DNA of 64,000 nt from Pseudogymnoascus verrucosus (taxonomy: Eukaryota). Position 1 is the first letter of the stretch; each line of letters opens with the position of its first letter. Under the pieces are notes generated by a model. That model was not told the origin of the DNA and did not search any database. It saw only the letters and a program-made list of their open reading frames with translations. Both the position numbers and the translations under genes were made by a program. Location: assembly GCA_001662655.1 (NCBI GenBank), contig KV460207.1; one strand, written 5' to 3'. This document shows positions 1-19,779 of the stretch, piece by piece.

Positions 1-979
1 TTGCTAAAACATGGCATATCCACCAGGGGGTAACCAGGGAAAGTCTTGCCGTTACCACGTTGTTTGTCGTGGATCTATTCATAGGGTGTGGCGATAAGCA
101 AGTGGTGCGCCACATTTTTTGGCGATCAGTGCGGGGGTCTGCGCTAGGAGGTTGTCGTGGAGACGAAAGTTAAGTAATTGCTCCACATAAGCATCTGGCT
201 AGAATACTTGCAATCGCAGGTACTAAATATCCTTATCAGGCCCCAGCCGTAGGAGATGAGCAGTTCCACTATAAGGGTGAGTCTAGACTAGTAACCAAAA
301 GTCGAGGCAACCAAGGTCTAGGGGATTACGGGCTCGAGACTGAATCGTGACTAGGAACAAAATGGGCACTGAAACAGCAAGAATGATCTCAATGTGTAGG
401 ATAAAGGCGGCATTGTCTATGTGGCTGGAAACCCCGCACTAGCTACGGGCTATGCAAGCCACAAGGTTTGTAGCTACATTAAATGCAGATACATATTAAT
501 AGGGCCCAAAAATCATGATCTACTCCCTGCATGTGGGCTATCATGATGTGGATCTATCAAGGTTGCACTGTGGGTGTGGCACCCTCTTCTCTCTATCATG
601 GATTCTAGCACATTGCACGCGTCTAAAGAAGCTCTGGTCGCTTCTTTTATGACGTCTCTGACGCCATTACAGGGCAAATATAGGGTAGAACAGGGATTTA
701 ACAAGCATCTAGATCAATTGATGTGATGTCACTCAACCAGATTCTTAGAACTTGAAAGCCTCGTGGCGAAAAGGAAAGGCTAGTTGTTATCATCGAGGCG
801 GACTTCATAAGAAGGCGTGGGCTCATCACCTAACACACTTATCATAAAACTTCAACCAAACGCACACAGCTACGAAACAACTACTGTACGAACCTATTAT
901 ACCATATACACGCCACATTACTCATAGCTACAACATAACTTATACTTTGAGCTCTACATTTATAAAACAAGTGGCAAAC

Positions 980-3245
980 ATGACGGACGTTAAGCAGCAC
1001 TCGTTCAACCCTTCGCAGAAGTCTGGATTCGACGGCTCTGTAAAGAACATACAAAAGAAGACATCAGAGACTCAAGAGCAAGCACCTAGCGAAGTCGACG
1101 ATGTAGAGAGCCGTGCGGGCACAGAGTCTGTGGGAGGCGAGTCGCAGGCCATACAAGCAGGAAGCGTCGATAACGAAGGACATGTTATTGACGCCGATGG
1201 TCACATCATCGGGAACGTCACAGGGGAGAATGCATCACAGCTTGAGGGGTCTATCGTAGATCAACAGGGTGATGTGATAGATACCGAAGGAAATGTCATT
1301 GGAAGTGCGGAGCCACAGGAAGCCGGTGAAGCAGAAACCCCCGAGAAAGATCTTCCGGACGTATCAATCCTTGAGGGAAAGAAGGTAAACAAGGGAGGAA
1401 ACGTCGTTGACGACAGCGGCAAACTATATGGACGTATCGTCGACGGGGATATTTCTAAGTTGGTTGGAAAGAAGGTGGATTCCAGAGGAAAAATCTGGAA
1501 CGATTCAGGAAAAGTCATTGGAAGCGCGGAAGTGATACCCATCGATGAACGAGATGAGTCCTCTGGTGCACCCTTCGAAGATTTTCCCAATGCCGTCGTC
1601 AACAAGGACGGAACCGTCGCCTCGGATGGCCAGGTAGTTGGGAAGCTCGTTGACGGCGACGCTAAGAAACTCTCTGGCAAGAAGGTCGACAAGGATGGCG
1701 AGGTCATTGATAACGTCGGGAACGTTGTAGGAAAGGCTGAGCGATGGGAAGAAGAAGATGCCCCTGAGCCAGAAGCGGCCGATTTATCTTCTTTAGCTGG
1801 CAAGCGAGTGAATAAGCTAGGTAACGTGGTGGATGGCACAGGTGCCATCTATGGAAGACTCGTTGAAGGCGATCCCAAGAAGCTCGCAGGGAGGATGTGC
1901 GATAAGAACGGAGATGTTAGAGGCGAAGGTGGCGATGTTGTCGGCCGCGCTGAATTGGTTCCCGAGAGCGAGCGTGAAGGCATGAAGCAGGGACCATTTG
2001 CGGACTTCAATGGCGCAACCGTGAAAAAAGATGGCAAGGTAGAAGCTAGTGGCACAGTTGTTGGGCGTCTCATCGAAGGAGACGCAAAGAAGCTGTTTGG
2101 AAAGCCGGTGGATGCCGACGGTGACGTATTAGACTCCAATGGCAATCAGCTGGGGAAAGCTGAGAGATGGGAGGAACCCGAGAAAGAGAAGTCGAAGCAC
2201 GCAGCATCAGGCTTGAAGGTGAACCGCGAAGGGAACGTCGTGGGCGAAAATGGAGATACTATCGCCAAACTGACAGATGGTGATGTGAGCCGCTGTGCAG
2301 GTAAGGAGATTGATGACGATGGCGATGTCGTTGATGGAAAGAACCAACGCATTGGATCCGTCACACTCCTCGCAGATATTCCAGCCCCTGAGGAGCCCAA
2401 GGAATCACCAGAGGAAGCCGAGAAGCGCAAGCAGACGGAGCAAGACAAAAAGCTCGCCGCTCAGATGGCCACCTGTGTCCAGCAGTCACTGGACAAGATC
2501 CAGCCAATCCTCAAGATGATCACCGAGGTAAGCAAGCCGTTCCCTGCATACCAGTATTAAGCTAACAAAAGTAGGCTATTGAATTAGCCGAACGCCAGCC
2601 TAAGGAGGAACTTGATGAGCAGAAACTTGTCGACACTGTCAAGCCACTCCTCGAGCAAGGCGGCGAGATTTTGCAGGAAGCCAATGGTGTAATCCGTGGC
2701 CTTGATCCTGATGGAAGGATTCAGGCAAATGCCAAGCACAAGAGCGCCTCCCGCGAGGCAACACCAGAGGAGCACCGTCTTGCTGAGGTGTTGAAGGAGG
2801 TGAGTGTTATGAATATTTATATAATTTCTATAATGCTAACATTGAGATAGTTGACTGGCAGCGTGAGCCAGACGATTGAGGGGGCTAAGAAAAAGGTGGC
2901 GGGCATGCCCCACGCAAAGAAAGAGCTGAACCCACTCTGGGGTCTCCTTGCAGGTGCGTAAAATCTATCACATGTCTGAGTTCGGATGCTAACCTGTGTA
3001 CAGAGCCACTTGGACAAATCCTTGCTGCCGTTGGATTACTCCTGTCTGGCGTTCTTGGTCTAGTCGGCAAATTGGTATGTTTACTCCTGCAACATATGCG
3101 GAAGAACTACGCTAATATATTATAGCTTTCTGGATTAGGACTCGGTGGGCTGCTTGACAATCTTTTGGGCGGACTAGGGATTAAGGGCATCCTCGATGGT
3201 CTTGGCCTTGGGTCACTCACGAAGTCGTTGACGGGAAAGAAGTAG
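980..3245 (+). CDS. Repeat-rich hydrophilic protein (DUF3659/LEA-domain-like repeats, with a helical and Gly/Leu-rich C-terminus); 5 exons
   Basis: Long ORF with repeated 'G.VVD..G..vG.l.eGD' units. ATG at 980. GT-AG introns at 2528-2574 and 2800-2850, plus two more near 2955-3003 and 3075-3125. Spliced exons read AIELAERQPKEELDEQKLVDTVKPLL... and end at TAG 3243-3245. Confidence 0.8.
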
Positions 3246-4257: not shown

Positions 4258-5750
4258 ATGAGTCGGATGACAAGGACATTGCGAACTTGCGAAACCTGTG
4301 TTCACTGCGTACAGTGTGATGAGAATTTTGAGAGGGTTGGTTTTGTCATTAAAGCGCCTGCTCAGCCTAATCCTATCATCCTCGTCAAGACCAGAATGCA
4401 TGATAGCAATCTCATCGTATATGAACTACCATCTCCCAAAACTCTGCTGATAGCGGAATATCCTCCACAAGCAGCAACTTCTCTCTCCTCTCCTTAGGCG
4501 TTGCTGGAAAAACGTATGTTAAAATTTCATTCAACACATATCTGAGCTTTGGCGAGCCATAAGATAAAAACTCCATGTTCTTGAGGCCAGTCTGGATGTC
4601 CTCTGGGTCTCCCTCTCTTCTATCGAGGCCAATTACGTCGAAGGCGTTCAGTCGTGGCCTGCAAGACTAGCCTTGCGAAAGATCTGCTATAATCGCTCTA
4701 AGTGAGTAGAGATGTAGGAGTCTGAAAGATAATGACTGGTAGGTTGATCGAAATCGAGGGGTTCTGAAATCGTGAAACACAAAGTAGTAGATTAAGGACA
4801 TAAATCCGAAAGATAGTAACTGGTAGGCTGGTAGAAACTGAGGGGCTCTTGACCACATGGGGACTTTGCTGAAGTCCAGCCATCCCACAACAAGGGGGAA
4901 AAAATCATAAGGGACGAAATTCCAGGCAGCGATTTCGACCCTGCCGATGCCCCTGACGACGTATCTAAATATGATTCTGACGGGCCTTCTCTCTCTTGGG
5001 CGCAACTAGAGAATATGACCTGGTCATCCTCCGGTTGTTGGATGAAGACAAAGATGAATATCAGGACATGGTCGGAGGTATCCATGATGATATCATCCCT
5101 GACTCTGACGACAAGAGTATTGTAGATGCTGATGCGGACTCTAATTATGGATTAGACGCCATAGACGGCGAATTGGGCACCGTCGACAAGACATTCTCCG
5201 GTGTTCCGGTCCAGATACCTCACGTCGAAACCGATGTGACAGATTCTAGACCCGTGTCAGAGGTATACTGCAGGGGTTAGAGGATTTTGCCCGCAAAATC
5301 AGATATGATAAGGCACAGGAAAAGCCAACGTATCCGTTGAGCTTTAGCTCTGGTCTATCCTCCGTACTATATCGACAGAATAATTCATGGTAGTCTATAG
5401 GGCTGCCGTCCTCGAGAAAGTCCAATTGGTGCTCGGAAGGGAAACTCCGACGCCGGAAGCAGTTATAGCATTGGCTAGGTACTGGAGGCGCCATAAGAAC
5501 GGAGGCGTGTATGTAGATTTAGCATATACGAAATCAAGCAATGACCATGCATGCTATATTGGGTCTACTACTCGTGAATTCTCCAAGCGGATAAGGGGGC
5601 GTTTAAGAATCTTAAGTAAATATACTATACCATCCAAAACCACCGCCCTTATAGTTGGAGATGATGAATATGCTGTGTGTAGAAATGCTAGATACGATAA
5701 AGATTAAAGGTGAGAGTTAGCAATTATAAGAGTTGAGAACTTCGACAGGC
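4258..5750 (+). pseudogene. Decayed coding region containing a GIY-YIG-like nuclease motif
   Basis: Short same-strand ORF fragments (4258-4497, 4996-5280, 5387-5707) broken by stops and frameshifts. The last fragment contains GGVYVDL...CYIGSTTREFSKR, which fits the GIY...YIG...R signature. Confidence 0.45.
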
Positions 5751-5859
5751 CCTGTGCTGTCGTGCGCCCTGGGTAGTCGCTCTCCCTACTGTAGTTTGGA
5801 AACGTCACTGATTATGAACCCATTTTTTATTTGTAGCTATCTTGCTATTAATCGTCCGT

Positions 5860-6185
5860 GTTGGTCGCTCTCTACAACTATGGTTTGCAACGTTGCTCTG
5901 TCAAACTAGATTGTTAACAGGCTCTAATATGAGGACGGCGAGTCTAAGTAATCGAAGACCAGTGTTTTAGTTGTAGTAATTATAAACCTATAGCTTATTT
6001 ACAGCCACTATGCGATTTATCGCCCTTGTTAGTTGCTCTCCTTCATTGTCGTTTGCAACGTTACTCTACCGAACTAGATTGTCGATAGGTGCGAATATAA
6101 AAATTGCAACTCTAAGTGATTAAGGACTAATGTTTTAGTTATAGTGATTATAAACCCTTATTTTTCTTATGGCTACTGTGCCATT
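5860..6185. repeat. Degenerate ~168-bp tandem duplication
   Basis: 5860-6020 and 6028-6185 share the blocks gtttgcaacgtt(g/a)ctct, aactagattgt, tctaagt, tgttttagtt.tagt and attataaacc. A partial third copy lies near 5770. Confidence 0.75.
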
Positions 6186-6480
6186 GCGCATGTAGGGATA
6201 ACAATTCTGGTATTTGCGCTAAAGTGATTCATTCTAGCAGGACTTATAAATATTGTCTTGAAATCGTTTTAAAGCCTACGTCCATTTACTGTGCCATTGC
6301 GCATAATGAGCTATAAAACTCGAGCATTTGCGCTAAACAGGTCTTGATTTACTGTGCCATTGTGCATTATTAGCTATAAACTCGAGAATTTGCTCTAAAC
6401 TGGCTTTGATTTACTGTGTCATTGCCCATTATGACCTACAAATGTGACATATATATCATTTATACTCGAGATTTTTGCAC
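6175..6480. repeat. Array of ~60-bp degenerate repeats (actgtgccatTGCGCA..agctataaaac..tttgcgctaaa)
   Basis: Four to five copies, starting near 6175, 6287, 6350 and 6411. Confidence 0.75.
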
Positions 6481-7220
6481 TCTTTGATCTCGGCGTCGTC
6501 GAAGATACATGCAAATCCGATAATAGACGCTGAATTCTCAACTGGATCATCGACAGGCGCGAATATGAAGCCCCAAAGTCCCCCACACTACTTCCGGCCC
6601 CAAAGTCGCCTACAACCTATCCATATGTAGAGGATGCAGATGAGGATATGTCCAGCGTTCCTAATCTCGCAGTTGAAAGTAACAACGTCTGCGACTTTCA
6701 CATCCTCGCCATCCAGGAACAATAGTAAGAAGATAAACGATAGCGAGAAGAGCAACGACACCAAGAAGATCAATGGCAGCGAGAAGAGCAACTACAGCAA
6801 AAAGAACCAAGCAACAGCAAGAAAGAACCAAGGAGTACCGCTAGCAAGGAGTATCGATCCCAGCACCCAAGTCTTCAAAGCGCATAGCACAGTTCTGCAA
6901 CTTGAGGGCAGTACTGTTTACTAATAAAGTTGCTGTGCCAACGAGGATTCAGAGTGCGAAAACGCTTTGTGGGAAAGGCAAGTACACGACTACCAAAATC
7001 CGGCCGAAGATTGAGATGTCGTATCCCAGAGCGTCGTGGAGAAAGCGGGGATACCATCATTGACAGACAAGGTATTTCCGTCGTCCCACAAAGCAAGACT
7101 GGGAAAGTTTTACATGGCCAAGCCAAGGTAAGTACAGGACTACCAAAATCAAACCGTGGGTAAAGAGCTCCCGAAATTTGATATATCGATCACATTATGT
7201 GCCCAATGCCAAAGGGCAAC

Positions 7221-7240
7221 AAAAAAAAAATGACAAAAAA
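7221..7240 (-). terminator. RNA polymerase III oligo-T terminator of the 5S gene
   Basis: Plus-strand A6 and A10 runs sit immediately downstream of the 5S 3' end as read on the minus strand. Confidence 0.75.
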
Positions 7241-7302
7241 CATACAACAGTGGGTATTCGCTGGTGGCCACCCACCCAACTACTAATCCACCGATCTCAA
7301 GC
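7240..7302 (-). rRNA. 5S rRNA gene, 3' half (interrupted)
   Basis: Minus strand reads GCTTGAGATCGGTGGATTAGTAGTTGGGTGGGTGGCCACCAGCGAATACCCACTGTTGTATGT, a typical ascomycete 5S 3' half, followed by oligo-T tracts. Confidence 0.93.
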
Positions 7303-7976
7303 ATCCACTTGCTTTTTACTTCGGCCGGCCTAGTGGGTGAGCCCTTGCTGCCTTAAGGGGTGAAGCGAGGGTGAGCAGGGTGTGAGCGGGGTGAGGGGAC
7401 GCGATGATTTCGTGTCATTATCGCGTCAACGTCGTAATAGTACCGGAGTGTAGCTGTTTTAGTTCACGTACCTTGTTCAGCCTTGCGTTATCCCACCAAA
7501 GACCGTCACTAAACTGAGGGGCACAGTACACATCAGCCTCACTAGGCAGCATTCTTCAAGTACGTATGTGAAGTTGGGGTACAATACAGTGACTAGAGAT
7601 ATAATTTGCCTATGTGATTGGGGATCGCTGTGTTCTCAATAGTTATCTTATTTCGACAGAGGCCTAGAGCTTCTAGTCGAATTTAATAATGGAATAGCGC
7701 TATGCAACGCAGGTGAGGCGCCTGGCTGCAGCTGTTAGGACGTAGATGGCTGAAACAATTCGGAGCTCATATTTGGATTGCGCACTTAACTCACGTTCAA
7801 AGAGGTTTCTAATATCTGTTCCACTATCCTCTTGTAGACCACCTGCCACGCTGTCTCCCTTGCTCTTAATTAAGCATTTTTCTCAACTATGGTTCGTCTG
7901 TTAGACCAAAAACAAGTAACTCGAGTGGGAAATCGACAGAATTAAGCAGTTGACCTATACAATTGAGCCCTCTACT

Positions 7977-9629
7977 TCAAACCTGTTCATGATCTAACAC
8001 AGAGTCCTCATCAACAGTAAACTTCTCCCCATTTTCTGACATGCGGTTGACAGACAGGCGATGGTTTGCCAGGACATCGCCATTTCCAGCGGCCTTGTAC
8101 GTAGCCTCCATTTTGGTATAAAGCGGGCTGCTACTCTCGAACATAGCCTCGATTGATTCGAGGGAACGACCTGCAGTCTCGGGATAGAGGAAATAGACGA
8201 TGGGGCACCAGAGCAGATTGAGGCCGGCGAAGAGGAAGTAGGTGCGCGACTCGAGGACCCCGAACATGATAGGGTTTACGAGAACGGTCATACCGACGCC
8301 GATGGCCCATCCCGTGATTCCAAAGCCGTTGCCTTGGGCGCGCATCTCGGAGGGGAAGATCTCAGTAGGGATGAGGAATGCGACGGTGCCCCAAGTCGAG
8401 GCATAGATCAAGTTAAAGAGGAAGAGCATGGTGACAGCTGCCGGGGCGATTTGTGCGGCTTTGCTAGGATCCGCACGTGAGCCTTCGTACAAAGCGGCTG
8501 CGACTAGGTTCACGAGGAAGAGGCCGAAGGCGCCGCCGATTAGACACGTACGCCGACCAAGACGGTCTACGATCTGTGCGGATATTATGGTGCCGACTAT
8601 ACCGATGGTGTTGAGGCCTCCGGCAAGACCGCTCTGCTTGACAGAACTGTATCCGGCTTGCTTCAAGAGAACGGGACTGTACGCTGTCACCGCGGTAATT
8701 CCGGTCCATGAAGCCATGATTTGCAGAAAAAGACATAGCCATGCACGGCGACCCAGGTGAGCACCGTTAGTAGCGCGGCCGAGGAGGACCTTTGCGAATT
8801 GGACAGGGGAGCTAGGCTTGGATTCTTCGGCAACAGCGCAAATTTCAGCGAATTCCCTCTCGACATCTGGGCCCTTGTTGCCACGGATATGCTCCAAGAC
8901 CTCCTTAGCCTCATCAAGACGGCCGACAGAGGCCAGGAAGCGAGGAGAGTCGGGGAGAAACTTGATGCCAACCATCAGAGTTATAGCAGGGAGACACTGG
9001 AAAGCTAGGAGAAATCTCCATCTGACCTCTGAATAGCCACCGTCGACGAATGAGAGGCCAAAGTCAAGCCAGTAGGCTACGGAGATACCCAGGTAGTTTG
9101 CGATGAAGACGTATCCAAGGAATCCACCACGGTGGCCCGCAGATGATACTTCGGCGATGTAGACGGGAACGATGGCAGTCAATGCTCCGGTGCCCAGGCC
9201 CGTAACGACACGGGCAACGACAATGAAGTCGGAGCTCTGTGTGGCGGCCTGGAGGGCACCTCCGACCAGGGCGAATACTGCTGCGATGAGGAGACCGTTA
9301 ATACGACCAATGCGATCAGCGATCCAGCCGCCGACGAATGCTCCGACGATGGCGCCTAAGTAGTAGATAGAGACGATGCCGCCTTGGTGAGTGGTGTCTG
9401 TGACTGTCCCATCTGGAAGTCCAATGCCGACCTCAGCTACGTAGTTGGGCGAGGCATTCACGCCTCCCATAACACCTGTAAGGTTGGTTGTTAGTGACCA
9501 GGACATATATTTCTGGTCGAGAGACTCACCTTGGTCATATCCCTCGAAAAAAATGGCAATGAGAGAGAAAGTCTGAATGAATATGGAGAGCTGTTTGGGC
9601 GACAGCTTCTTCCAGAAATGTTGAAACAT
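7977..9629 (-). CDS. MFS sugar porter (sugar/inositol transporter family)
   Basis: Motifs FFEGYDQG, ADRIGRI, RVVTGLGTG, PDSPRFL, VDRLGRR and YPETAGRSLE, with about 12 hydrophobic segments. One in-frame 54-nt intron at 9476-9529. Confidence 0.93.
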   Translation of the reverse strand: MFQHFWKKLSPKQLSIFIQTFSLIAIFFEGYDQGESLDQKYMSWSLTTNLTGVMGGVNASPNYVAEVGIGLPDGTVTDTTHQGGIVSIYYLGAIVGAFVGGWIADRIGRINGLLIAAVFALVGGALQAATQSSDFIVVARVVTGLGTGALTAIVPVYIAEVSSAGHRGGFLGYVFIANYLGISVAYWLDFGLSFVDGGYSEVRWRFLLAFQCLPAITLMVGIKFLPDSPRFLASVGRLDEAKEVLEHIRGNKGPDVEREFAEICAVAEESKPSSPVQFAKVLLGRATNGAHLGRRAWLCLFLQIMASWTGITAVTAYSPVLLKQAGYSSVKQSGLAGGLNTIGIVGTIISAQIVDRLGRRTCLIGGAFGLFLVNLVAAALYEGSRADPSKAAQIAPAAVTMLFLFNLIYASTWGTVAFLIPTEIFPSEMRAQGNGFGITGWAIGVGMTVLVNPIMFGVLESRTYFLFAGLNLLWCPIVYFLYPETAGRSLESIEAMFESSSPLYTKMEATYKAAGNGDVLANHRLSVNRMSENGEKFTVDEDSVLDHEQV

Positions 9630-9870
9630 AGCGAGGTAGGGGGCAGTATCGATTGTCTAGAACCAAAAGGATGTAATTGATGTGTTGTACAGTACGTACA
9701 GAGTCGGCCTTTAAAAGGAAAACGAAGAGCGAACGGGGTGTCCTTTAAATACTCCATGAGATGACAGTTTACATACTCTCACACACGGCAATAAGGGAGT
9801 AACATGAAAGCTGAACTTGTGATCCTCACTTTTTGTGAGTCGGTCATCCTCTCTCCACACTTTTACTTGG

Positions 9871-9959
9871 AGATCCGGAGAACTGGAGAATTGTGGAGAT
9901 GGGTGGGTGTGGCAGGGTGTGGCAAATACATCTCCACAATTCTCCAGTTCTCCGGATCT
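9871..9959. promoter_or_regulatory. Perfect 31-bp inverted repeat in the divergent promoter; each arm holds three SYGGRG (CreA/Cre1-type) motifs
   Basis: agatccggagaactggagaattgtggagatg (9871-9901) and its exact reverse complement (9929-9959), with a 27-nt spacer. The arms contain CCGGAG, CTGGAG and GTGGAG. The repeat is certain; the regulatory role is inferred. Confidence 0.55.
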
Positions 9960-10371
9960 GCACGAGGATAGCCATTGGCTGTGCAGACTCCCGTGTTATC
10001 CCATAAGCGTTTACACGTTTAACCGTCTAAACAGTTTAAACATTTAACCGTTTAAGCATTCAAGCGGGTTACAATTTCGCCCATATGCAATACTCCGAAG
10101 TCCTTGGCAAAGCCAACCTCGATGATTCAAGGACAAGTTGCGAACAGCCGTAAGCATTAAGACCACTTTAAAGCGTAGAATGGGAACCCACTGACTATCT
10201 TTTTCACATTATTCATGATTTCGGTTATGTACTGCCTTTCTTCCCCCTTCTTTTATCTCGACATCAAATCAAGTATATATTGACTTAAGCACCATCTTTC
10301 TAAGTCTCTCTAGTTTTTGTATATACCACAATTTATTCATAGCGGGGACTCCATAGAGCGGTAATATAGCA

Positions 10372-11790
10372 ATGCCCTCTTCAACTACAAACGGAGCCAG
10401 CAACGGCTACGGAAATGGCAGTACAAATGGCATCAATGTGCCGTCCGATGCGGCGTTCGACTTGACAGTCCTCGGCTTGAACAGCGGGACTTCCATGGTT
10501 AGTTTCCACACTGTTATATCACCGCCGGTACATGCTGACAGCAGATTTTAGGATGGCATCGACTGCGCACTCTGCCGATTTCGACAGGAGACGCCCAGCT
10601 CTCCAATGCAATTCGAGCTGTTGAAATACAGCGAAATCCCTCTCGAGCCGGTAATCAAGAAACGAGTCATGAATATGATCCTTCACAATAAAACCACACC
10701 AGAAGAGCTATCGGAAGTCAATGTGCTACTGGGAGAGACATTTGCGTCTGCAGTCAAGGAATTCACAAAAGAACATGGGCTTCAACTGACAGATATTGAT
10801 GTTGTTGGTTCCCACGGACAGACTATTTGGTTGCTATCAATGCCAGAGGAAGGACAAGTCAAGTCTGCTCTCACAATGGCCGAGGGATCATTTATCGCAG
10901 CACGTACCGGTATTACAACAGTCACGGACTTCAGAGTCTCAGATCAGGCGGCTGGACGCCAAGGCGCACCTCTCATCGCCTTTTTCGACGCCCTGGTACT
11001 TCATCACCCCACTAAACTACGAGCTTGCCAGAACATCGGCGGCATCGCTAATGTGTGCTTTATTCCGCCGGATCACCAAGGTGGCGTAGACGCTTGTTAT
11101 GACTTTGATACGGGTCCTGGGAACGTTTTCATTGATGCCGTAGTACGTCACTATACAAATGGTGAGCAGGAATATGACAGAGATGGAAAGATGGGCAAGG
11201 CTGGGCAAGTGGATCAGGAACTTGTGGACGACTTTATGAAGCACAAATACTTTGGTCTGGAGCCACCGAAAACCACAGGGCGGGAAGTTTTTCGAGACAC
11301 ACTCGCCTTCGAATTTATCAAGAAGGCAGAGCAGAAGGGGCTGTCACCGAACGACGTGGTGGCGTCGATTACTAGAGTTACTGCACAAGCTATCGTTGAT
11401 CACTACCAACGTTATGCGCCATCGCAAAACATCGACGAGATTTTCATGTGCGGCGGCGGAGCATACAACCCAAATATCGCAGCGTTCATCCAAAAAAATT
11501 ATCCGAATACTAAGATCATGATGTTAGATGCCGCTGGTATTCCAGGGAGTGCAAAGGAAGCAATCACCTTTGCATGGCAGGCTATGGAAGCTGTCGTCGG
11601 ACGCTCCATCCCAGTTCCGACCAGAGTCGAGACAAGACAGGAGTATGTTTTAGGGAAGGTGTCTCCCGGCAAGAATTATAGAGAGGTCATGAGGAAGGGA
11701 ATACTCTTTGGTGGTAAGGCGGATCATCTCAGTCCTGTAAAGGAGCTGGTCAACTACGTTGAGGGGAAGGTTTTCGATAACAAGTGGTGA
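10372..11790 (+). CDS. lgk: Levoglucosan kinase (AnmK/LGK family anhydrosugar kinase)
   Basis: ATG at 10372 and intron at 10498-10551. The spliced protein has [79 protein letters not shown] and CGGGAYN. These closely match the Lipomyces starkeyi levoglucosan kinase sequence as I recall it. Confidence 0.88.
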
Positions 11791-12081
11791 CGAGATGTTG
11801 GGTGACTGTTTCGTATTCTGTGTAATTTAGTGATTACTTTGCGTAGGTAATTTCTTCGCTTGTGAAATACATACATATACGTTAATATAATGACATCTAT
11901 CTCGTCTCTCGGGCCATGCCTCCAAAGCACACGTCGCATGGATTGCATCCGATATGCATCCGATATGCGGGGTAAACCGCACTAGAAGCGGGACGGAAAA
12001 TAGTTCCGGAACAAAGGTTACAGTTAGCACAGCTAGAAATGAACTCTTCGATTGCGCAATCTTCGCGGCTACGACCTCTTA

Positions 12082-14464
12082 ATGCAGCAAGCTTCTGCCT
12101 CTGAGCCTATAGTCCTAGATTCAATGAATTCAATGAACACCGCTAATACAGAGAGATTAAATGCAAGGCCATCAAAATCTCCCTTTGATGTGGCTCGGCC
12201 GAGGAAGCTAAGACGGGTTACAAGAGCATGCGATTTTTGCCACAGACGGAGCACCCGATGTAAACAGAGTCAAGACGATAGCCGATGTCAAAACTGTCTA
12301 GATTTTGATATTGCGTGTACCTTTGAGAGACCGGCGAGGAAGCGAGGAAGTAAGCGGCAAGGACAGGCGCAAGTGGACGAAGATGGGTCTCCATCCGGAG
12401 AACATGCAAATCTACTCCTACAGATGATGAACAGTCAGGTTCATGATGATGAAGCGTACTCCCACGACGAAAGGAATAAGAGAACTGCGGAGGCGTTGAT
12501 TACATTTCCATTAGCGACAGAGTACAGAGACATGGTGTTAGACAACCCTGATATAATTCAAGATCTCGTCAGTGTCTACTTCGAGGTGGTTTATCCAATG
12601 TAGGTCATGGCTTCATCTGTCTGTACTCTATTATGCTTTACCTTGAAACTATGAAGCTGAGGCCTAGAAAGTTAACTTTCTCAGATTTCCTTTCTTTCAT
12701 CGTCCAACTTTTCTCCAAAAGATTACCATGAGAAGGTACCTTTCTGATCGAGGACTGTTCGCTGTTGTTATGGCTATTTGTGCTCTTGCATCTGCTCGGG
12801 CTCGAGATGGAGCACTTCTTCCAGGTCAATGGGAGCCGTCCCATTTCCGCCATCCCTCTTCAGAGTCCTTCTACTCAGCTGCGCGAGATGTCACTCCGCA
12901 TCTCAATCTCAGTGCGATGGAAGGCATTAATTGGATGCGGATGTGTGCCCTGCTATCACTTCTCGGGATTCAAAATGGAAATATTAATGTTATGCATCAG
13001 TATCTTGGTCTTTATCATACTTTGGCAGCTATAGATGGCTTGCACGACGAGAAAAACTGGCCAAAAGATATTAGCATTATTGAGATTGAGGAGAGAAGAA
13101 GACTGGTAAATGACATCTTACTTTCCTGTTAAAAATTGCTAATGGTCCTATAAGTTTTGGTCAATGTACACATTAGAGGTCTATTCTTCCCTTGTCTGGG
13201 TTGGAATTACCCGCTGCCGACAATCGCAATGTCGGGTGTTTTATCCTAGTGAAGTGGATGACGAACGCTTTTCTGACGAGGATTTTTCAAACTTATTACC
13301 ACAAAGATCTCCGCATCAAGGAGTTGAAGTAAGGCCAGGGCCGGCCATTGACACCTCCTCTTGGCTTCATGGTTGGAACTTCACGACAGATCTTTACGTA
13401 GTCCTTGAACATGCCATGGACGGCTTTCATCGCCGCCGACCACGAACAATAGCACATTTCTCGCCCAATAATATGTTCAATAGGGTCGCGCCATCGCAAT
13501 CTACGGTTTTGGATAAAGTCATGTGGATGCACCAGCAATTACCAGACAGATTCAAGGAAATACAGTCTGTGACATCTGACACAGGAGAAGATAGGCTGAG
13601 CTTCCAGGCGGCGAATATCGCTGCAACACTGCAAGTAAGTCATCCACATCAACAAGAAATAGCATGATACTTACGTTTATAAAGCTCGTTAGAATGGTGT
13701 TGTTTACAGCAGAAGAAGCAACTGTAGACCAAAAGTGTGCCATTGCCCGCGAACTGCTTGATGGATTCGCCCAAGTGCCAGTGTTCTTCCTAAGAGCAAT
13801 TTCGTCACCATTAGTATGTTTGATTCTAAAACTTCAGGCGTATCGCTAACAGTTGTAAGCTTTATCATTTAGCAGGTATCGGCTCCATCTTGGGTTCCGT
13901 CATGGAAGGCCCACTTTCAAAATCTTCCTATTTGCAGGCTAGGACCGTATTGTAAGCATCTTCCATCTCAATCAAGGCTAAACATGGCTCATTGTATACC
14001 TCATTAGACTTTCGATGGCCGACCTCCTGGCCAGCCTCGAGATAGGCATGACGCGAACCTCTGGCGCAACGCAGCGTCTCCGGTCACAAGTAACCCGGAT
14101 CGACGAGTATATGGCAGCACAGCAGCAACAAAATTTCGCACAATCCCCATCAGCACTCCCGTCATGTGTTCCGAGCATGCCGCATTCAAATCTACGTGAA
14201 CATGTCGATATGTTTCAAGAGGAGCAACAACAATCTCGCAGAGGAGTTCAGCAAGTAGGATACGAATTTCCTTCAAATTCCCAAGGCACAGGACATTTGG
14301 GGAATAGGCAGGACTACGTGCAGATTCAAATGCCGACGGAGACATATAATTTCAAGGGCATGCCTAGTGGAATCGATGGTCTAGATGAGACTGGTCAGCA
14401 GTTACAGTTTCAACTGCCGCCAGGGTTATTGGATGATTGGCCGTGGCTTTTTGATATGGCGTAA
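12082..14464 (+). CDS. Zn(II)2Cys6 fungal transcription factor with a fungal-specific middle domain (about 6 exons)
   Basis: RACDFCHRRSTRCKQSQDDSRCQNCLDFDIACTF zinc cluster, followed by YFEVVYP|..FFHRPTF and EERRRL|FWSMYTLEVY. GT-AG introns start near 12600, 13106, 13634, 13813 and 13952. Acidic C-terminal tail LDDWPWLFDMA. Confidence 0.9.
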
Positions 14465-15039
14465 GGATGTAAGTATGTAAGAGTAGTGTAGGTCACCTGC
14501 GATCTATCATATAGAGTTTGTTTATTTACGCATGGAGCAGGTATGAAAGGGGGCTTAGGTATTGACCGTGATGGTATAATCTATCATATATTGTTCTATT
14601 AGTTTTGATAGCCTTGCCATAACCGCCTTGCACAGCAGACACGCGCGTTACCGGGATTTTTCTTCTGCTCTCAGTCTGTTATTGTTATTCCTTATCACGG
14701 ATGAACCCGCTGACCCTGATAATCCTCAACACTATGATTCTCTAGCTGTTCTACCAGACAGGAAAGTGAAGAATCGACATTTTCCGAAGTCAGGACGTAC
14801 TTTTGGCAAAGCTTGATTATCGATTAGGCGGAGCTACAGAGATATGGAGAATCTGGAGAGCCTAGGTATTAGACAATTTCACGTTGAATTAATATCAAAG
14901 AGTTGCAGCAAGTGCTCCTTCATCGTAACACACGGTACATCTTCAGCGTGTATGCTCTTCTAAGACCTACTATCTTGCTGCTGGAAGGCTGCATTACAGC
15001 CCCACCAGTCAAGCAAGTTTTGAATATTTCTTCTCGTGT

Positions 15040-15370
15040 TCAGCTTGTTTGAACACGAATATCCTCTAGACAGACCAATAGTGCCCTTCTCTCAGCCCAG
15101 TCCACCAAAGCGTATCCTGCCATGTTCAGTAGCTGGACCGCCGTTGCCCAACTGATGGCATGGCGATTGTCGATGCTATTTGCAACAACTCGAGTTGCGT
15201 AAATCCGTGCAATTTCCCCTTGCCCGTTCGAACCTGCTAGCTCTTTCTTGGCAGCTGCTCTCTGGCAGAGAGAGGATGAGAAGGAAATGAGCGAGATTGA
15301 ACATTTGCATCGCTGCGCGGACAGTTTCATTGATGTAGAGACTGATAAGAAAAGGGTTCCCGTCATTCTC
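15040..15370 (-). pseudogene. Fragment resembling the C-terminal part of a fungal transcription-factor domain
   Basis: ARIYATRVVANS...WATAVQLLNMAGYALVDWAERRALLVCLEDIRVQT, with no recognisable 5' part. The similarity is from memory only. Confidence 0.35.
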
Positions 15371-15496
15371 TAGGCTTGCATAGGTAACTAAAGGCTGACA
15401 CTCTAATGGTTGATGTTGTTCGTCCGCTTACAGATCTTGCCAGCCTGTAAATCTTTCTTGAGAGAATGTAATCTCTTTGCGGACTTAAAGGAAGGA

Positions 15497-15972
15497 CTAT
15501 ATGTTAATTAGAGCTGCAATAAGAGAGGGTACAATGCATACACTAGCAGCATTACTAACGACATTCTTGTCTATCTTAGACTTTATAATGTGGTTTTAAT
15601 AACCTGAAAATCTGAACTAGATATTGACCACACTGTCAACTGTTAGAAGTTCGCTAATTTGACCATGTTGTGATGAAGCATAGTATTTAACAAAGTCTTA
15701 GTATAGGTTGCTATCATGCTATAGCAGCGCCTTCTCTAGACACTTCACAGCAAGAAACCTAATATCTCCATTAGTAGCCTGTACACAGTGTTAAGTCTCA
15801 CGTACCCTTAAAATATAATTGCTACTTCCACGTGCTTGTTTTTAGTAGCGTTAGTGAGAGTGTGCTGTTCAATATAGGTTTTCACGTTCTGTTAATTAGG
15901 TGTGAGCTCTGCAGAAAATATCCTTGCTTCTTTGCCATATTAATATGATCCTGTATATAGAGTACCTTCCAT
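15497..15972 (-). pseudogene. Truncated, RIP-mutated Starship captain (DUF3435 tyrosine recombinase)-like N-terminal remnant
   Basis: TATAAA near 16065 and ATG at 15972. Exons 15972-15806 and 15758-15542 are joined by a GT-AG intron (15805-15759), and a second donor GTATGC lies at 15541. The translation ...Y*DFVKYYASSQHGQISELLTVDSVVNI*FRFSGY*NHIIKSKID... fits the captain pattern F..Y.....G.I...PT..SV...W..F once TAG/TAA are read as mutated TGG. Confidence 0.6.
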
Positions 15973-16310
15973 CCTATTATAGCAGGAAGTAGGTCCTTGA
16001 AAAGGAGATGAGAATGTTGTAGATAGCAGACTGCGAAAAGTGAAGGTGGTGGGGGGTCTGCCTTTATACTACTTTCAAGCCTCACCCACGCTCACCTAGC
16101 CATGGCCATCTAAAGTCGCGGTGCATCGCGTTCATCGCGTCCATCGCTTCTCAATACGAGATCCACACCTTGCGTTGTTGATGTGGTCGCCGTCACGTAG
16201 CTGAGGGAGATAACCGGATTATCGTAAAAGCATCAAAAACTTGAGGCGGCGACGCTCAGATTTGACACTATGCCTATTGGCACGATTGAGAGTAAAAAGC
16301 AAGTAGATTA

Positions 16311-16371
16311 CAAGCTTGTGTATGGCAGAGCGGACGGGATGCCCAATTCTCTTGAGTCTATGGTCGTATGT
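16311..16371 (-). rRNA. 5S rRNA gene, 5' half (interrupted)
   Basis: Minus strand reads ACATACGACCATAGACTCAAGAGAATTGGGCATCCCGTCCGCTCTGCCATACACAAGCTTG. Joined to 7297-7240 it gives a 119-nt 5S with helix I and helix II pairing. Confidence 0.93.
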
Positions 16372-17072
16372 GATAACTTCTCTCTTGCTAGGGTATAAGT
16401 ACTGTTAGGCGCTGAGGTGTATGACGATTTCGACAGAGGCCCCCGGCCGAAGGTTTGGATGTTGTATCCCAGAGCACCGTGGAGGAATCGGCAATACCAG
16501 AATTGACAGATGATGAGTTGATTCGATTTCATAAGGCTAGTCTTGGGAAATACTATCTAGCTGAGCCAGGAAAATTCGAAGCTGAATGGGAGCTCGCGAT
16601 TTCAGCGTGCAAGGGGAGAAGCCCCGTGTCACCGATTTTATTTCTCACCACCGCTCTCCTATCTCGTCGCCGCTCCATTTCTCGTTACCCGCTGCTTTTC
16701 TCACCCTCTACTCCCTTTTCTCACCACCCACCCCATTTCTCACCGTCAACCCCACTGTCTCGCTTCCACCCCCCCCATTTCTTGCTACCCCCTTCTCCGT
16801 TGTAGTCATTGTCATTGACTTCCCGGAAGAAGTCAATGACAATGACTGGTCGTGGAGTCCTATAGCAGCACTGAAACAATTCTCATCGTTGCCGTTGGAA
16901 AGCATCACTGCCCCAGGTATGAAGATATAGATCTCGAGCCATCATCGCCTGCCACCTTCAATCACAATCACAAGCACGGCATGTCACATAGCAAATCAAA
17001 AAATTGAACGTAAACTTCTAATTCATTCAACTAACAACATAAATCTAGTTCCTCATCTCCACACACACCTCT

Positions 17073-18643
17073 CTACAAACGGCTCTCCTTCTGCGGCGCG
17101 GCGTTCTTCTCCGTCGCCGTCTTAATCGCCTCACCCAGCGCCTTATCCACACGTGAAAACATCTCGTAAGTGCGCTGTCTCGTATCCTCCCTCGCCGCCG
17201 ACAAATGCCCCGAGACATTCCCAATAAAGTTAGCCTGCTGCCCCTCAGTGCGTCCAAGGACATCCCACAAGCCCTTAGCCTGCACGTAGTCCTCAGCCAC
17301 AACCTCATTCAGGTGCATGACCGCTTGGGCGGACCACTTCTGGTGGGGGTCGTTGGTGATGGGGGAGTGTTGCTTGTATGTCAGAGTGCGGTAAGAGGAG
17401 GGGTAGTTGGGGTTAGCGCCGTAGTTCCCGTTGACCGCCATCGCGCCATCGCGCTGGAAGGGGTTGAACGCGTGGAGGGGCGCGTTGACGGGGATCTGCT
17501 GGTAGTTGACACCCAGGCGATGGCGGTGGGTATCTGGGTAGGAGAAGAGGCGAGATTGGAGGACAGGGTCGGCGGAGGGCTCGACGCCAGGGACGAGGTG
17601 GGAGGGGGAGAAAGCGACCTGTTCGATTTCGGCGAAGTAGTTCTCGGGGTTCTTGTTGAGGGTGAACTTGCCGAAGGGGCGGAGGGGGACGTCCTTCTGG
17701 GGCCAGACTTTGGTGAGGTCGAAGACGTTCCAGCGGAACTTCTCGGCTTGCTCGGGCGAGAGGACTTGCACGTAGACAGTCCAGCTGGGGTAGTCGCCCT
17801 TCTCGATCGACTCGAAGAGGTCTTGGGTGTGCCAGTCTGGGTTCTCGCTGGCGAGCTTGCCGGCTTCCGCATTGTTGAAGGTCTTGCTGCCTTGGTCGGT
17901 CTTGAGGTGGACTTGCACGTAGTTGAAGGTCCCGTCGGGCTTGTGCCACTTGTGGGTGTGGCCCGAGTAGCCGTTCATGTGGCGGTACGAGTATGGGGTT
18001 CCGCGGTCAGAGAAGAGGTGCATGACCTGGTGGATGGCCTCTTGGTGGGTGGAGAGGTAGTCCCAGAACATGGTGGCGTCCTTCAGGTTGGTTTGGGGGT
18101 TGCGCTTCTGGGTGTGGATGAAGAGAGGGAACTTTCCGGGGTCGCGCAAGAAGAAGATGGGTGTGTTGTTGTAGACCCAGTCCCAATTGCCCTCCTCGGT
18201 GTAGAACTTGATGGAGAAGCCGCGGGGATCGCGAGCAGAATCTGCGGAGCCCTTCTCACCACCGACGGTCGAGAAACGGGTCACGGCCTTGGTCTTCTTG
18301 CCAACAGTCTTCAACATGTCGACGACGGTGATATCAGAGACTGGGAAGTATTAGCTATTTGCCATTCTCATTTAAAGCCTAGAAGCAACTTACTATCATG
18401 TGTAACCTCGAACTCGCCATAGGCACCGGCACCCTTGGCGTGGACAACGCGCTCTGGGATACGCTCGCGGTCGAAGTGAGCGAGCTGGTCGATTAAGTGG
18501 AAGTCCTGGAGAAGGAGCGGGCCATTCGGACCTCCTGCTCTTTGGTAGGCCTCGGCATGGTGAACTGGAGCACCGCTGGATGTGGTATAGGTGGGTTGTT
18601 GGTTGTACTTGAAGGTGGAGGCGGGCGACTCGTCAGAACCCAT
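17073..18643 (-). CDS. Small-subunit monofunctional heme catalase, probably peroxisomal
   Basis: [38 protein letters not shown] and [14 protein letters not shown]. Intron at 18341-18393. C-terminal SRL is a PTS1-type signal. Confidence 0.96.
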
Positions 18644-19779
18644 GGTTGCTCTGGTTTGTTGCTGTGAAGCGGATATATGAGAGTAGGTTATAACTTCTTA
18701 TACTTGTATGAAGTCCAATGAATGAAAGACTTATTCAGATATGAGAGAAGAGACGAATAAACGGTGAAAGAGATGATTATTCTAGGTCAAACAGAGATGA
18801 ACGAGGGGAAAAAGAGGAAGAGAACGGTGAACGACGCAACTGTCTATATATATGGGAAGTATGGCGGAACCCGACTGGTACGTAATTGAGGTACCCTCGT
18901 TCTAGTATGGGGGGGGAGGGAGACCTGGGTCTCAGGGCGGGGTACCTCAGTGTTCAACCAATCAGAGCCGTCAATTTGCAAGCAACCGTCCGTAACCCTC
19001 TCGGACTTTGGCCAATGTAACCAAGAATTAATGACCTAAGGCCACAAGGCCACCACTCCTCCCCCGTTCAAACACACCTCTTACAGCTGTAAGAGTATCA
19101 TGATTGGTTGGTTTATTAACTTCCTCGGTCCTTGGCTGTTATAGTATCACAGCTGCATCCAGTAACCAGACCTGTCTCATAGTGCGAGTCGTGCTCACTC
19201 AACAGAATATTCCCGTGCAGTAGTACTATATTATATCCCTTGTGCCGAAGTTATACCAGCTATACCAGCTACCAGTAACTAAATTAATAGGAGTACGTAA
19301 CTTGGGGTAGTATTAGTATCCCTATACCGGTATGAGGAATGGACTCTTACTCTGTCTTCCTTCATTCTAACTCGGACACTTTCAGTCGGTCCTGTTCTAG
19401 CCTCTACTTCTTACCAAAGCAAGTTATATTACCTGTTGAGGAAAGAGACCCCGCACTCACCTTATTCCCGCCGCCCGGATGACGCCAGTCTCCGCCTTTA
19501 TCAAGCAATCCAGCGCCCGTGCACGAACGGGGTCCCGCCTACCTATCGTGGGAGTACTCCTATCGTGGTATGTAGTTCCGAGTCTAGGTTATACCACAAC
19601 ACTAAAAATGTGAGTGGGCTTCGGACCGGTGCTCTAGAACGCATGAGAGCTTTATAATCGTTGTGCGTTTGATGTATAATGTGATATGTAACAAATAGAA
19701 GAAGCTGTGGCGAGAATTACGCTGCGCTGAGGAATCCGGGCTTTGTTCCTCTGTACTAGTATGAGGGTTCTTAAAAGAA

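Follow-up and report, generated by a model that had tools for sequence, protein, structure and literature searches.

5S rDNA is already known as a landing site of Starships, fungal elements whose mover, the captain, is a tyrosine recombinase with a DUF3435 domain, encoded by the first gene at one end of the element. In the largest survey, these elements measured 15,020-511,117 bp, were bounded by direct repeats (DRs) and terminal inverted repeats (TIRs) and carried metabolic cargo; 23% of 222 curated Starship sites lay in 5S rDNA, at five or more positions, and the DRs of the 5S-targeting members were 6-16 bp long (PMC11162782). Voyager, from Macrophomina, has its insertion site 20 bp into the 5S gene, counted from the start (PMC9156397), and Osiris, from Aspergillus fumigatus, has the DR gggtg/tgggtg in a ttagtagttgggtgggtg stretch (PMC12153272, Table S4). 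Here we describe a 9,008-bp insert that splits a 5S rRNA gene in a 64,000-nucleotide stretch of DNA from Pseudogymnoascus verrucosus (contig KV460207.1 of assembly GCA_001662655.1), which we call the window. The survey lists 11-33 Starship-type tyrosine recombinase genes for each Pseudogymnoascus genome and no resolved element (Table S8, PMC11162782). Across all of its genomes it sets 559 bounded elements against 10,212 captain genes, about 18-fold more orphan captains (PMC11162782).

We compared the insert with the described elements that resemble it most closely. With the 5S-targeting Starships (Voyager, the Osiris/Enterprise-family and the Arwing family) it shares a host in the Pezizomycotina, the fragmentation of one 5S copy among many, a short DR with TIRs, and accessory metabolic cargo (PMC11162782, PMC9156397, PMC12153272). 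In the Pezizomycotina, the cargo elements that these sources show entering the 5S coding region with DRs and TIRs are Starships. The site used here, 5S positions 57-61, differs from the sites of Voyager and Osiris, and the TIR is unrelated to that of Osiris. Enterprise, which carries the Spok block in Podospora, has a palindromic target, a 5-6 bp DR and multi-copy repeats derived from its ends (bufo and schoutedenella), and it also occurs in degraded small versions, such as one of 5.5 kb in a P. comata strain (PMC8092012). Our insert likewise repeats part of a palindromic target, and its end sequences persist as multi-copy repeats, whereas Enterprise has no TIRs, targets RGGTAG outside 5S genes and carries the Kirc recombinase.

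Two systems of a different kind were included in the comparison. The Dada transposons (Dada-5S, Dada-U6 and Dada-tRNA) enter multicopy small RNA genes at fixed positions, including 5S genes in fish, and relatives of them are reported from fungi; they make short duplications, have conserved subterminal sequences and include copies with the target on one side alone (PMC3706591, PMC8869645). All of these habits appear to be matched by the insert or by its relatives elsewhere in these genomes. Dada differs in its 6-7 bp duplications, its lack of TIRs, its DDE transposase, the fish origin of its 5S families and its lack of host cargo. Against this description, the insert has a 5-bp duplication, a clear TIR and no detected transposase, and agrees with Dada in target habit alone. 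ToxhAT, a 14-kb element of wheat pathogens, resembles the insert in being small, bounded by TIRs and without a working transposase, and in carrying genes useful to the host (PMC12506042).

A split 5S gene and the boundaries of the insert

The two halves of the 5S gene were identified with Infernal cmscan in truncated mode, using a searched stretch that was cut exactly at the junctions so that each half could be recognised. The 5' half matched the 5S model RF00001 with 18.6 bits (E 0.067 in 110 nt) and was cut off at its 3' end. The 3' half, at 7239-7302 on the minus strand, matched model positions 57-120 with 25.9 bits (E 7.4e-4 in 103 nt) and was cut off at its 5' end. Both scores are below the RF00001 gathering score of 38 bits. 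A scan of the whole window against Rfam at gathering thresholds called no 5S gene in the 64 kb, and a 10-kb scan by E-value reported the 3' part weakly only (18.8 bits, E 5.5). Because a permissive scan of the 64 kb (E<=10) found no further 5S-like stretch, the two halves are the sole 5S fragments in the window. The matches overlap at model positions 57-61, and this overlap is the duplicated GCTTG (CAAGC on the plus strand) at the two junctions (Table 1).

We rebuilt the uninterrupted gene by script from the window sequence, dropping one copy of GCTTG. The resulting 119 nt fold with -35.6 kcal/mol into the canonical three-way junction, consisting of helix I (1-9/111-119), helix II (14-21/58-66), helix III (29-32/45-48) and a helix IV/V arm (67-110). 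Six pairs of helix II (16-21/58-63) form across the junction, and the two far ends of the locus contribute all nine pairs of helix I. The fold energy is not unusual for this base composition (z = -1.26 against 200 shuffles) and therefore proves nothing alone; the support comes from the match to the model and from the complementarity of the halves, which together form the three-way junction with helices I and II. An earlier note on this DNA, made from the sequence alone, had placed the halves on the minus strand 9,008 bp apart and suggested an Infernal run on both. It had also proposed that removing the insert and one CAAGC copy restores a 119-nt 5S, that the break lies near +57 to +61 with a short direct repeat, and that two pairings, including CUCAAG with a junction-spanning CUUGAG, occur in the restored molecule. 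Our analysis agrees with that account at every point, with the reservation that each half is recognised below the gathering score.

Without the insert, the target reads CAAGCTTG, a perfect palindrome of 8 bp at 5S positions ~54-61, and the 5-bp duplication GCTTG falls inside it. The insert is bounded by 18-nt TIRs, which the earlier note had missed. The two copies are complementary at 17/18 positions, and two extra bases (TA, 16309-16310) separate the right copy from the duplication. The 18-mer has just two matches in the window at up to three mismatches, a number reached by 0/100 shuffles. When the outer 300 nt of the two ends were compared by gapped local alignment, the similarity was limited to these 18 nt (score 31, against a shuffle mean of 17.6 and a maximum of 27, n=300), and a longer TIR was rejected for this reason. 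Direct repeats, often with short TIRs, are also the boundaries by which Starships are recognised. We conclude that the 5S rDNA here contains a genuine non-autonomous cargo element with precise bounds.

Two further features of the ends were recorded. A T5 run at 16297-16301 (minus strand) lies inside the right TIR, ~12 nt past the 5S break in the direction of transcription. A direct repeat of 20 nt (80% identical) is found near the inner edges of the two arms, at 7577-7596 and 15527-15546. We also ran a metagenome pattern scan with the 18-nt TIR. Its 100 loci were set aside as chance matches, as none of them shares more than the 18-mer with positions 6800-16800 of the window (blastn, E<=1e-3).

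Table 1. Positions of the split 5S gene, the insert and the features inside it, in window coordinates.
Feature	Position	Strand	Remarks
5S 5' half (positions 1-61)	16311..16371	-	RF00001 model 1-61; ends in GCTTG copy 16315-16311
5S 3' half (positions 57-119), same 5S gene type	7240..7302	-	starts with GCTTG copy 7302-7298
T-rich run after 5S 3' end	7218..7239	-	read in sequence; putative RNA polymerase III (Pol III) terminator, by position
Insert, non-autonomous TIR-bounded cargo element, 9,008 bp	7303..16310	.	between 5S halves and duplicated GCTTG; no recombinase or transposase domain found
Left TIR, 18 nt	7303..7320	+	repeat search, 94% complementary; pattern search
Right TIR, 18 nt, 1 mismatch	16291..16308	-	repeat search; pattern search; end alignment
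Left arm, non-coding, multi-copy in relatives	7321..7783	.	second copy ~12% diverged over 7512-7783
Major facilitator superfamily (MFS) sugar transporter gene, open frame 559 aa	7980..9656	-	Pfam Sugar_tr E 9.2e-92, MFS_1 E 1.1e-31
Palindrome, 95 nt (34-nt arms, 97% complementary, 27-nt loop)	9868..9962	.	divergent promoter between transporter and kinase
Levoglucosan kinase gene (predicted), 454 aa	10372..11790	+	exon 1 10372-10497, intron 10498-10551, exon 2 10552-11790
Zn2Cys6 fungal transcription factor gene, several putative exons	12043..14464	+	Pfam Zn_clus E 3.1e-4, Fungal_trans E 1.4e-5
Right arm, no recognisable gene	14465..16290	.	outer part from ~15500 multi-copy in relatives

Levoglucosan cargo without a mobility gene

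The genes inside the insert were compared with protein families and homologues. The second exon of the kinase gene matches Pfam AnmK (PF03702; E 2e-81, frame 10552-11790(+)), and the protein aligns with chain residues 26-438 of the levoglucosan kinase of Lipomyces starkeyi, which is characterised in structure and activity (PDB 4yh5; E 6.3e-214), a full-length match in which roughly four in five residues are identical by eye. The 42 codons of exon 1 are identical at 26/42 positions to the N-terminus of a 454-aa homologue. Judged by these alignments, the gene is predicted to code for a true levoglucosan kinase, complete at 454 aa. Its best 120 homologues, from Leotiomycetes, Eurotiomycetes, Dothideomycetes and two basidiomycetes, are 76-90% identical. 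Horizontal transfer of the kinase, which has ~80% identity to the yeast Lipomyces enzyme, was considered and rejected because all of these homologues fall in that same range across groups; the high identity to the yeast kinase reflects conservation and is no evidence of transfer. Unlike the Lipomyces gene, this kinase gene lies within the ends of a mobile element, together with genes for a transporter and a regulator.

Homologues of the transporter are 93-94% identical in the same genus (the second-best match, at 93%, is from Pseudogymnoascus) and 80% identical in Hyaloscypha. In Recurvomyces mirabilis, Zasmidium cellare, Penicillium canariense, P. angulare and P. herquei, the locus tags of the transporter homologue and the kinase homologue are consecutive. 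The recurrence of this arrangement in five species from two fungal classes indicates that the two genes form a conserved functional pair or module, and the transporter is plausibly a levoglucosan importer. The third gene, for the Zn2Cys6 factor, is read in the open frames 12043-12603, 12668-13132, 13143-13667 and 13982-14464. Together, the three genes look like a complete, apparently intact levoglucosan utilisation module, composed of a transporter, a kinase and a pathway-type Zn2Cys6 regulator. A literature search for a fungal levoglucosan kinase gene cluster found no paper.

The palindrome between the transporter and the kinase (Table 1) contains CCGGAG/CTCCGG motifs, which make it a candidate binding site of the cluster's Zn2Cys6 regulator, or else a small inserted hairpin element. 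The relatives' contigs break at this palindrome. Weak matches of miRNA models there (E 0.4-2.8) reflect the hairpin merely.

The insert encodes no enzyme for its own movement. We searched its seven main open reading frames (ORFs) against Pfam and found no DUF3435 captain, tyrosine recombinase or transposase. A more permissive search (E<=1) addressed the ORFs of at least 45 aa, of which 100 overlap the insert. It covered the 50 that lie in the arms and between genes, the other 50 overlapping the three large genes, and found no mobility domain among the 50 searched. The whole window has 49 ORFs of at least 180 aa, and a search of 25 of these again gave no recombinase or transposase. The scanned frames of the window are ordinary core genes, among them catalase, enoyl-CoA hydratase, Paf1 and haem lyase.

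Only short frames, of up to 109 aa, occur in the 1.8-kb right arm, and none gives a Pfam match (E<=1) that reaches its cut-off. The 109-aa frame, 15043-15369(-), occupies the place where a captain would be expected; it has no Pfam match and a best score of 0.81 in the protein atlas, and we took it as a non-coding or decayed scrap. Base 15223, within the frames at 15043-15427(-), is absent in 4/4 relatives, and its removal would fuse an 83-aa frame with the 109-aa frame. The window copy may therefore carry a frameshift at 15223 in a small unrecognised gene or scrap.

Apparent repeated use of one 5S position and the state of the locus in relatives

We aligned contigs of four relatives (X2, X3, X4 and X6) to positions 5000-19000 of the window at >=85% identity. 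They were taken from several organisms with genome-sized contig sets that a search of sequencing runs had picked out with a query of flank and insert in equal parts; runs with small shares (X7-X17, X19-X23) contribute nothing to what follows. The joint 7297->16311, which has five ambiguous bases and corresponds to a gene without the insert, reached a depth of 671-1,202 in all four, compared with 22-54 over single-copy parts (summed contig depth is not equal to copy number). This depth indicates that intact 5S genes of the rejoined form are multi-copy in each relative. The ends of the insert are multi-copy as well, with the bins 7335-7801 and 15741-16207 two to three times deeper than the interior. 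Position 16264 is covered by 10 contigs in X2, 7 in X3, 6 in X4 and 4 in X6. A second copy over 7512-7783, ~12% diverged, is present in X2 and X4 (578-nt contigs, 32 differences, 6 gaps), and X3 has a second copy over 15498-16054. The earlier note had named a lack of related ends elsewhere as part of what would speak against its reading, and the end regions are multi-copy in these relatives.

Some contigs continue differently from the window at the insertion point. In X3, X4 and X6, six contigs each differ just before 16311, and a few differ after 7301. These differing continuations at the same 5S base indicate that the site has been used repeatedly. In X3 and X4, the consensus of the loose ends before 16311 contains the window's ten bases 16281-16290, followed by a different outer 20 nt. 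Another point of divergence is 16268, where X3 and X4 have six contigs each that leave the window, with a consensus that resembles the reverse complement of the left arm near 7330-7350. Such detail is a lead and not a result, the loose-end consensuses being 30 nt long with 0.65-0.82 agreement. A 21-nt motif taken from the loose ends has no ungapped match in the window within three mismatches. Overall, the relatives point to a site-specific family that has used this 5S position repeatedly, its members being conserved in their subterminal parts and variable in their outer tips and interiors.

The interior of the insert is single-copy in 4/4 relatives and 0.6-1.1% diverged. We counted 50 differences in 8,754 nt in X2 (0.57%), 91 in 8,350 nt in X3 (1.1%), 97 in 8,626 nt in X4 (1.1%) and 61 in 8,139 nt in X6 (0.75%). 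The right flank was also found in all four relatives, with contigs that end at 16346, inside the 5S 5' half, and its divergence is of a similar order to that of the insert (X2 0.08%; X3 0.7-1.6%). The left flank was found in X2 and X6; positions 5000-7164 have no cover at >=85% in X3 and X4, and such uncovered parts say nothing about absence.

Origin of the insert and features of its flanks

We favour an explanation in which a dispersed 5S copy in a Pseudogymnoascus-like fungus was struck at the palindrome CAAGCTTG by an element from a mobile family specific for this 5S position. According to the anatomy of the locus, it inserted as one unit, duplicated GCTTG and placed its 18-nt inverted ends against the gene halves. 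It may be a derelict without its former enzyme gene or a non-autonomous cassette moved in trans, and we infer that the mover was most likely a Starship-type tyrosine recombinase. 5S genes have an internal Pol III control region with A-box and C-box regions. With the break at +57 to +61, the C-box half of this promoter would no longer be joined to the A-box region and the start site, so the 5S copy is presumably dead, judging from general knowledge of 5S genes. Any residual transcript would end ~17 nt past the break at the T5 run in the end of the element, a putative Pol III terminator, giving an RNA of ~78 nt. A dead copy would be tolerated because many intact copies exist. The insertion is presumably older than the split from the four relatives and would now be a fixed genomic island. 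As a whole, this chain of a 5S-site family element, moved by a captain, carrying levoglucosan cargo and now fixed, is our best explanation, and we hold it tentatively, at a little under an even chance.

A number of observations weigh against this explanation. A Starship would have a DUF3435 captain as the first gene at one end, and the scans of the insert and window contained none. In the right arm, where an inward-pointing captain is expected, there was no captain or remnant among the open frames, to which the search was confined, so that a heavily broken remnant would escape it. At 9,008 bp the insert is smaller than the smallest surveyed Starship of 15,020 bp (9.0 versus at least 15.0 kb), and its 5-bp DR is shorter than the 6-16 bp of the 5S-targeting members (PMC11162782). 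The TIR and DR match nothing among the examined entries of the supplements of two Starship papers (PMC11162782 and PMC12153272), where the occurrences of GCTTG/CAAGC belong to unrelated TIR strings only and were discarded. The short multi-copy end fragments fit DDE-type families or families like miniature inverted-repeat transposable elements at least equally well. Since the family is site-specific, the same GCTTG on both sides is no proof that both halves come from one 5S gene.

The relatives add to these points. No presence/absence polymorphism of the kind known from Starships was seen among the four relatives, whose contigs break in the 5S gene and the TIR. For the same reason no contig bridges either junction, with or without the insert, and an empty site, which the earlier note had looked to relatives to provide, was not seen in any of the four. 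That the relatives carry the insert at the same locus is the parsimonious reading of these contigs, and not proven by them. No second copy of the 9-kb block was seen in 4/4 relatives either, so that movement as a unit is argued by the TIRs and the duplication alone. As all four relatives hold the block and none shows an empty site, the insertion appears to be old, with no sign of present mobility.

A Starship is nevertheless a reasonable working model, if an unproven one. The earlier note had called the insert an unusually small Starship. The precise bounds, the DR, the accessory cargo (transporter, levoglucosan kinase and Zn2Cys6 regulator) and the related ends in relatives speak for this claim, whereas the missing captain, the size, and the differing site and ends speak against it. 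Because no captain was found, we do not file the element as a Starship; it may well work like one. A bolder version of this model makes the insert a mini-Starship, a 9-kb captain-less cassette that was moved in trans by an orphan captain, delivered the levoglucosan module and would be the first boundary-defined member, in Pseudogymnoascus, of a mobile family specific for this 5S position. We regard this version as doubtful.

The strongest alternative to a captain-moved element is a non-autonomous DDE-type transposon of a 5S-targeting family, either Dada-like in habit or of an undescribed superfamily, for which a transposase encoded elsewhere would make a 5-bp staggered cut in the palindrome. 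Clean 18-nt TIRs and a fixed short duplication at a palindromic target are what such an enzyme would leave, and the end fragments are multi-copy in the relatives (4-10 contigs over 16264). The entry of Dada into small RNA genes, and the Dada copies that have the target at one end alone, like other copies here, set a precedent, and the loose-end consensus in X3 and X4 places the conserved part of the family subterminally, as in Dada. The duplication length and the TIR are unlike Dada, however, no transposase domain was found in the scanned ORFs of the insert or window, and a literature search found no DDE family that targets 5S genes in fungi. The transposon would also have to carry three host genes, as ToxhAT did, and a DDE element would not usually carry three intact genes complete with regulator and promoters. 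ToxhAT itself is a hAT-type element with an 8-bp duplication, is not specific for 5S genes and rides inside Starships. We judge the DDE explanation less likely on this balance, yet still a live alternative.

The locus might also have been assembled in place, if a short family element first entered one 5S copy, or two such elements entered two copies, and the levoglucosan genes arrived later between the ends, whether through nested insertion, gene conversion or a rearrangement involving copies of the element. Only the outer parts of the insert (~7303-7783 and ~15500-16310) are shared with other copies in relatives, most of which diverge at 16268 (six contigs each in X3 and X4), and the interior 7.7 kb is single-copy in all four. 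The 20-nt direct repeat lies near the inner edges of the arms, and a perfectly rejoined sequence need not mean that the halves come from a single gene, since site-specific insertion gives the same GCTTG at every 5S copy. Set against this, the window holds two 5S fragments and no others, and these are exactly complementary; the repeat search found no second layer of TIR or duplication at the inner edges; and variable interiors between constant ends are also normal for cargo-carrying elements. Assembly in place seems improbable to us. Far less probable still is a chance resemblance of unrelated 5S-like scraps, or a mis-join of the assembly through repeated 5S sequence. Each half does score below the gathering threshold, and 5S genes and element ends are repeats of the kind at which short-read contigs break. 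The halves nevertheless complement each other and share a 5-base overlap, helix I (all nine pairs) and helix II are built from both of them, the TIR lies exactly at both junctions, and four independently sequenced relatives share the interior and a right flank that ends in the 5S 5' half at 16346.

Relative to the literature that we searched, the captain-less 9-kb TIR-bounded cassette, its different 5S position, its occurrence in a genus without a resolved Starship boundary and the full levoglucosan module within such an element are new. A search for Starships in Pseudogymnoascus gave only one review mentioning both, and a search for truncated 5S pseudogenes of this kind found no paper. Older literature on Aspergillus nidulans reportedly describes 5S pseudogenes that consist of the 5' half with a conserved 3' flank. 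The exact target site and the end sequences of this element make it possible to look for an autonomous partner in complete assemblies. Such a search would test for non-autonomous mini elements in the Starship system or for a fungal DDE family that targets 5S genes. If the mini-Starship version were true, Starship machinery would also move small non-autonomous cassettes, and many, though not all, of the solo captains and truncated 5S pseudogenes in fungi would belong together as the two parts of a single system. Levoglucosan is the main sugar of biomass smoke, and a whole module for its catabolism within mobile-element ends bears on the spread of patchily distributed traits. If the insert is merely an old fixed relic, it still illustrates, neatly if in no unusual way, that elements can land safely in 5S rDNA.

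The flanks of the split gene contain several repeats. A direct repeat of 68 nt (82% identical, blastn E 7e-13) occurs at 7000-7067 and 16443-16510. Relative to the split 5S gene, the first copy is ~172 nt downstream and the second ~72 nt upstream, so that the two copies would have bracketed the gene at a spacing of ~430 nt before the insertion. Read on the plus strand, the right copy falls within an open frame, and the left copy contains a stop. A repeat of 26 nt (92%) lies beside the 68-nt repeat, at 6975-7000 and 7125-7150. Further to the left, 5811-6442 consists of diverged tandem-like repeats that are 71-85% identical. The missing left-flank cover in X3 and X4 may reflect fast evolution or a rearrangement on this side of the locus in these relatives.

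Among the neighbouring genes, the haem lyase is 92% identical to a Pseudogymnoascus sp. protein cluster, and its next match is at 68%. In the catalase region (17106-18342), X3, X4 and X6 hold a second contig that is 10-17% diverged, besides the close copy, which suggests a paralogous catalase. The frame 848-2557(+) codes for 570 aa with six DUF3659 repeats and the start of DUF6987 (E 4e-117), an uncharacterised fungal repeat protein.

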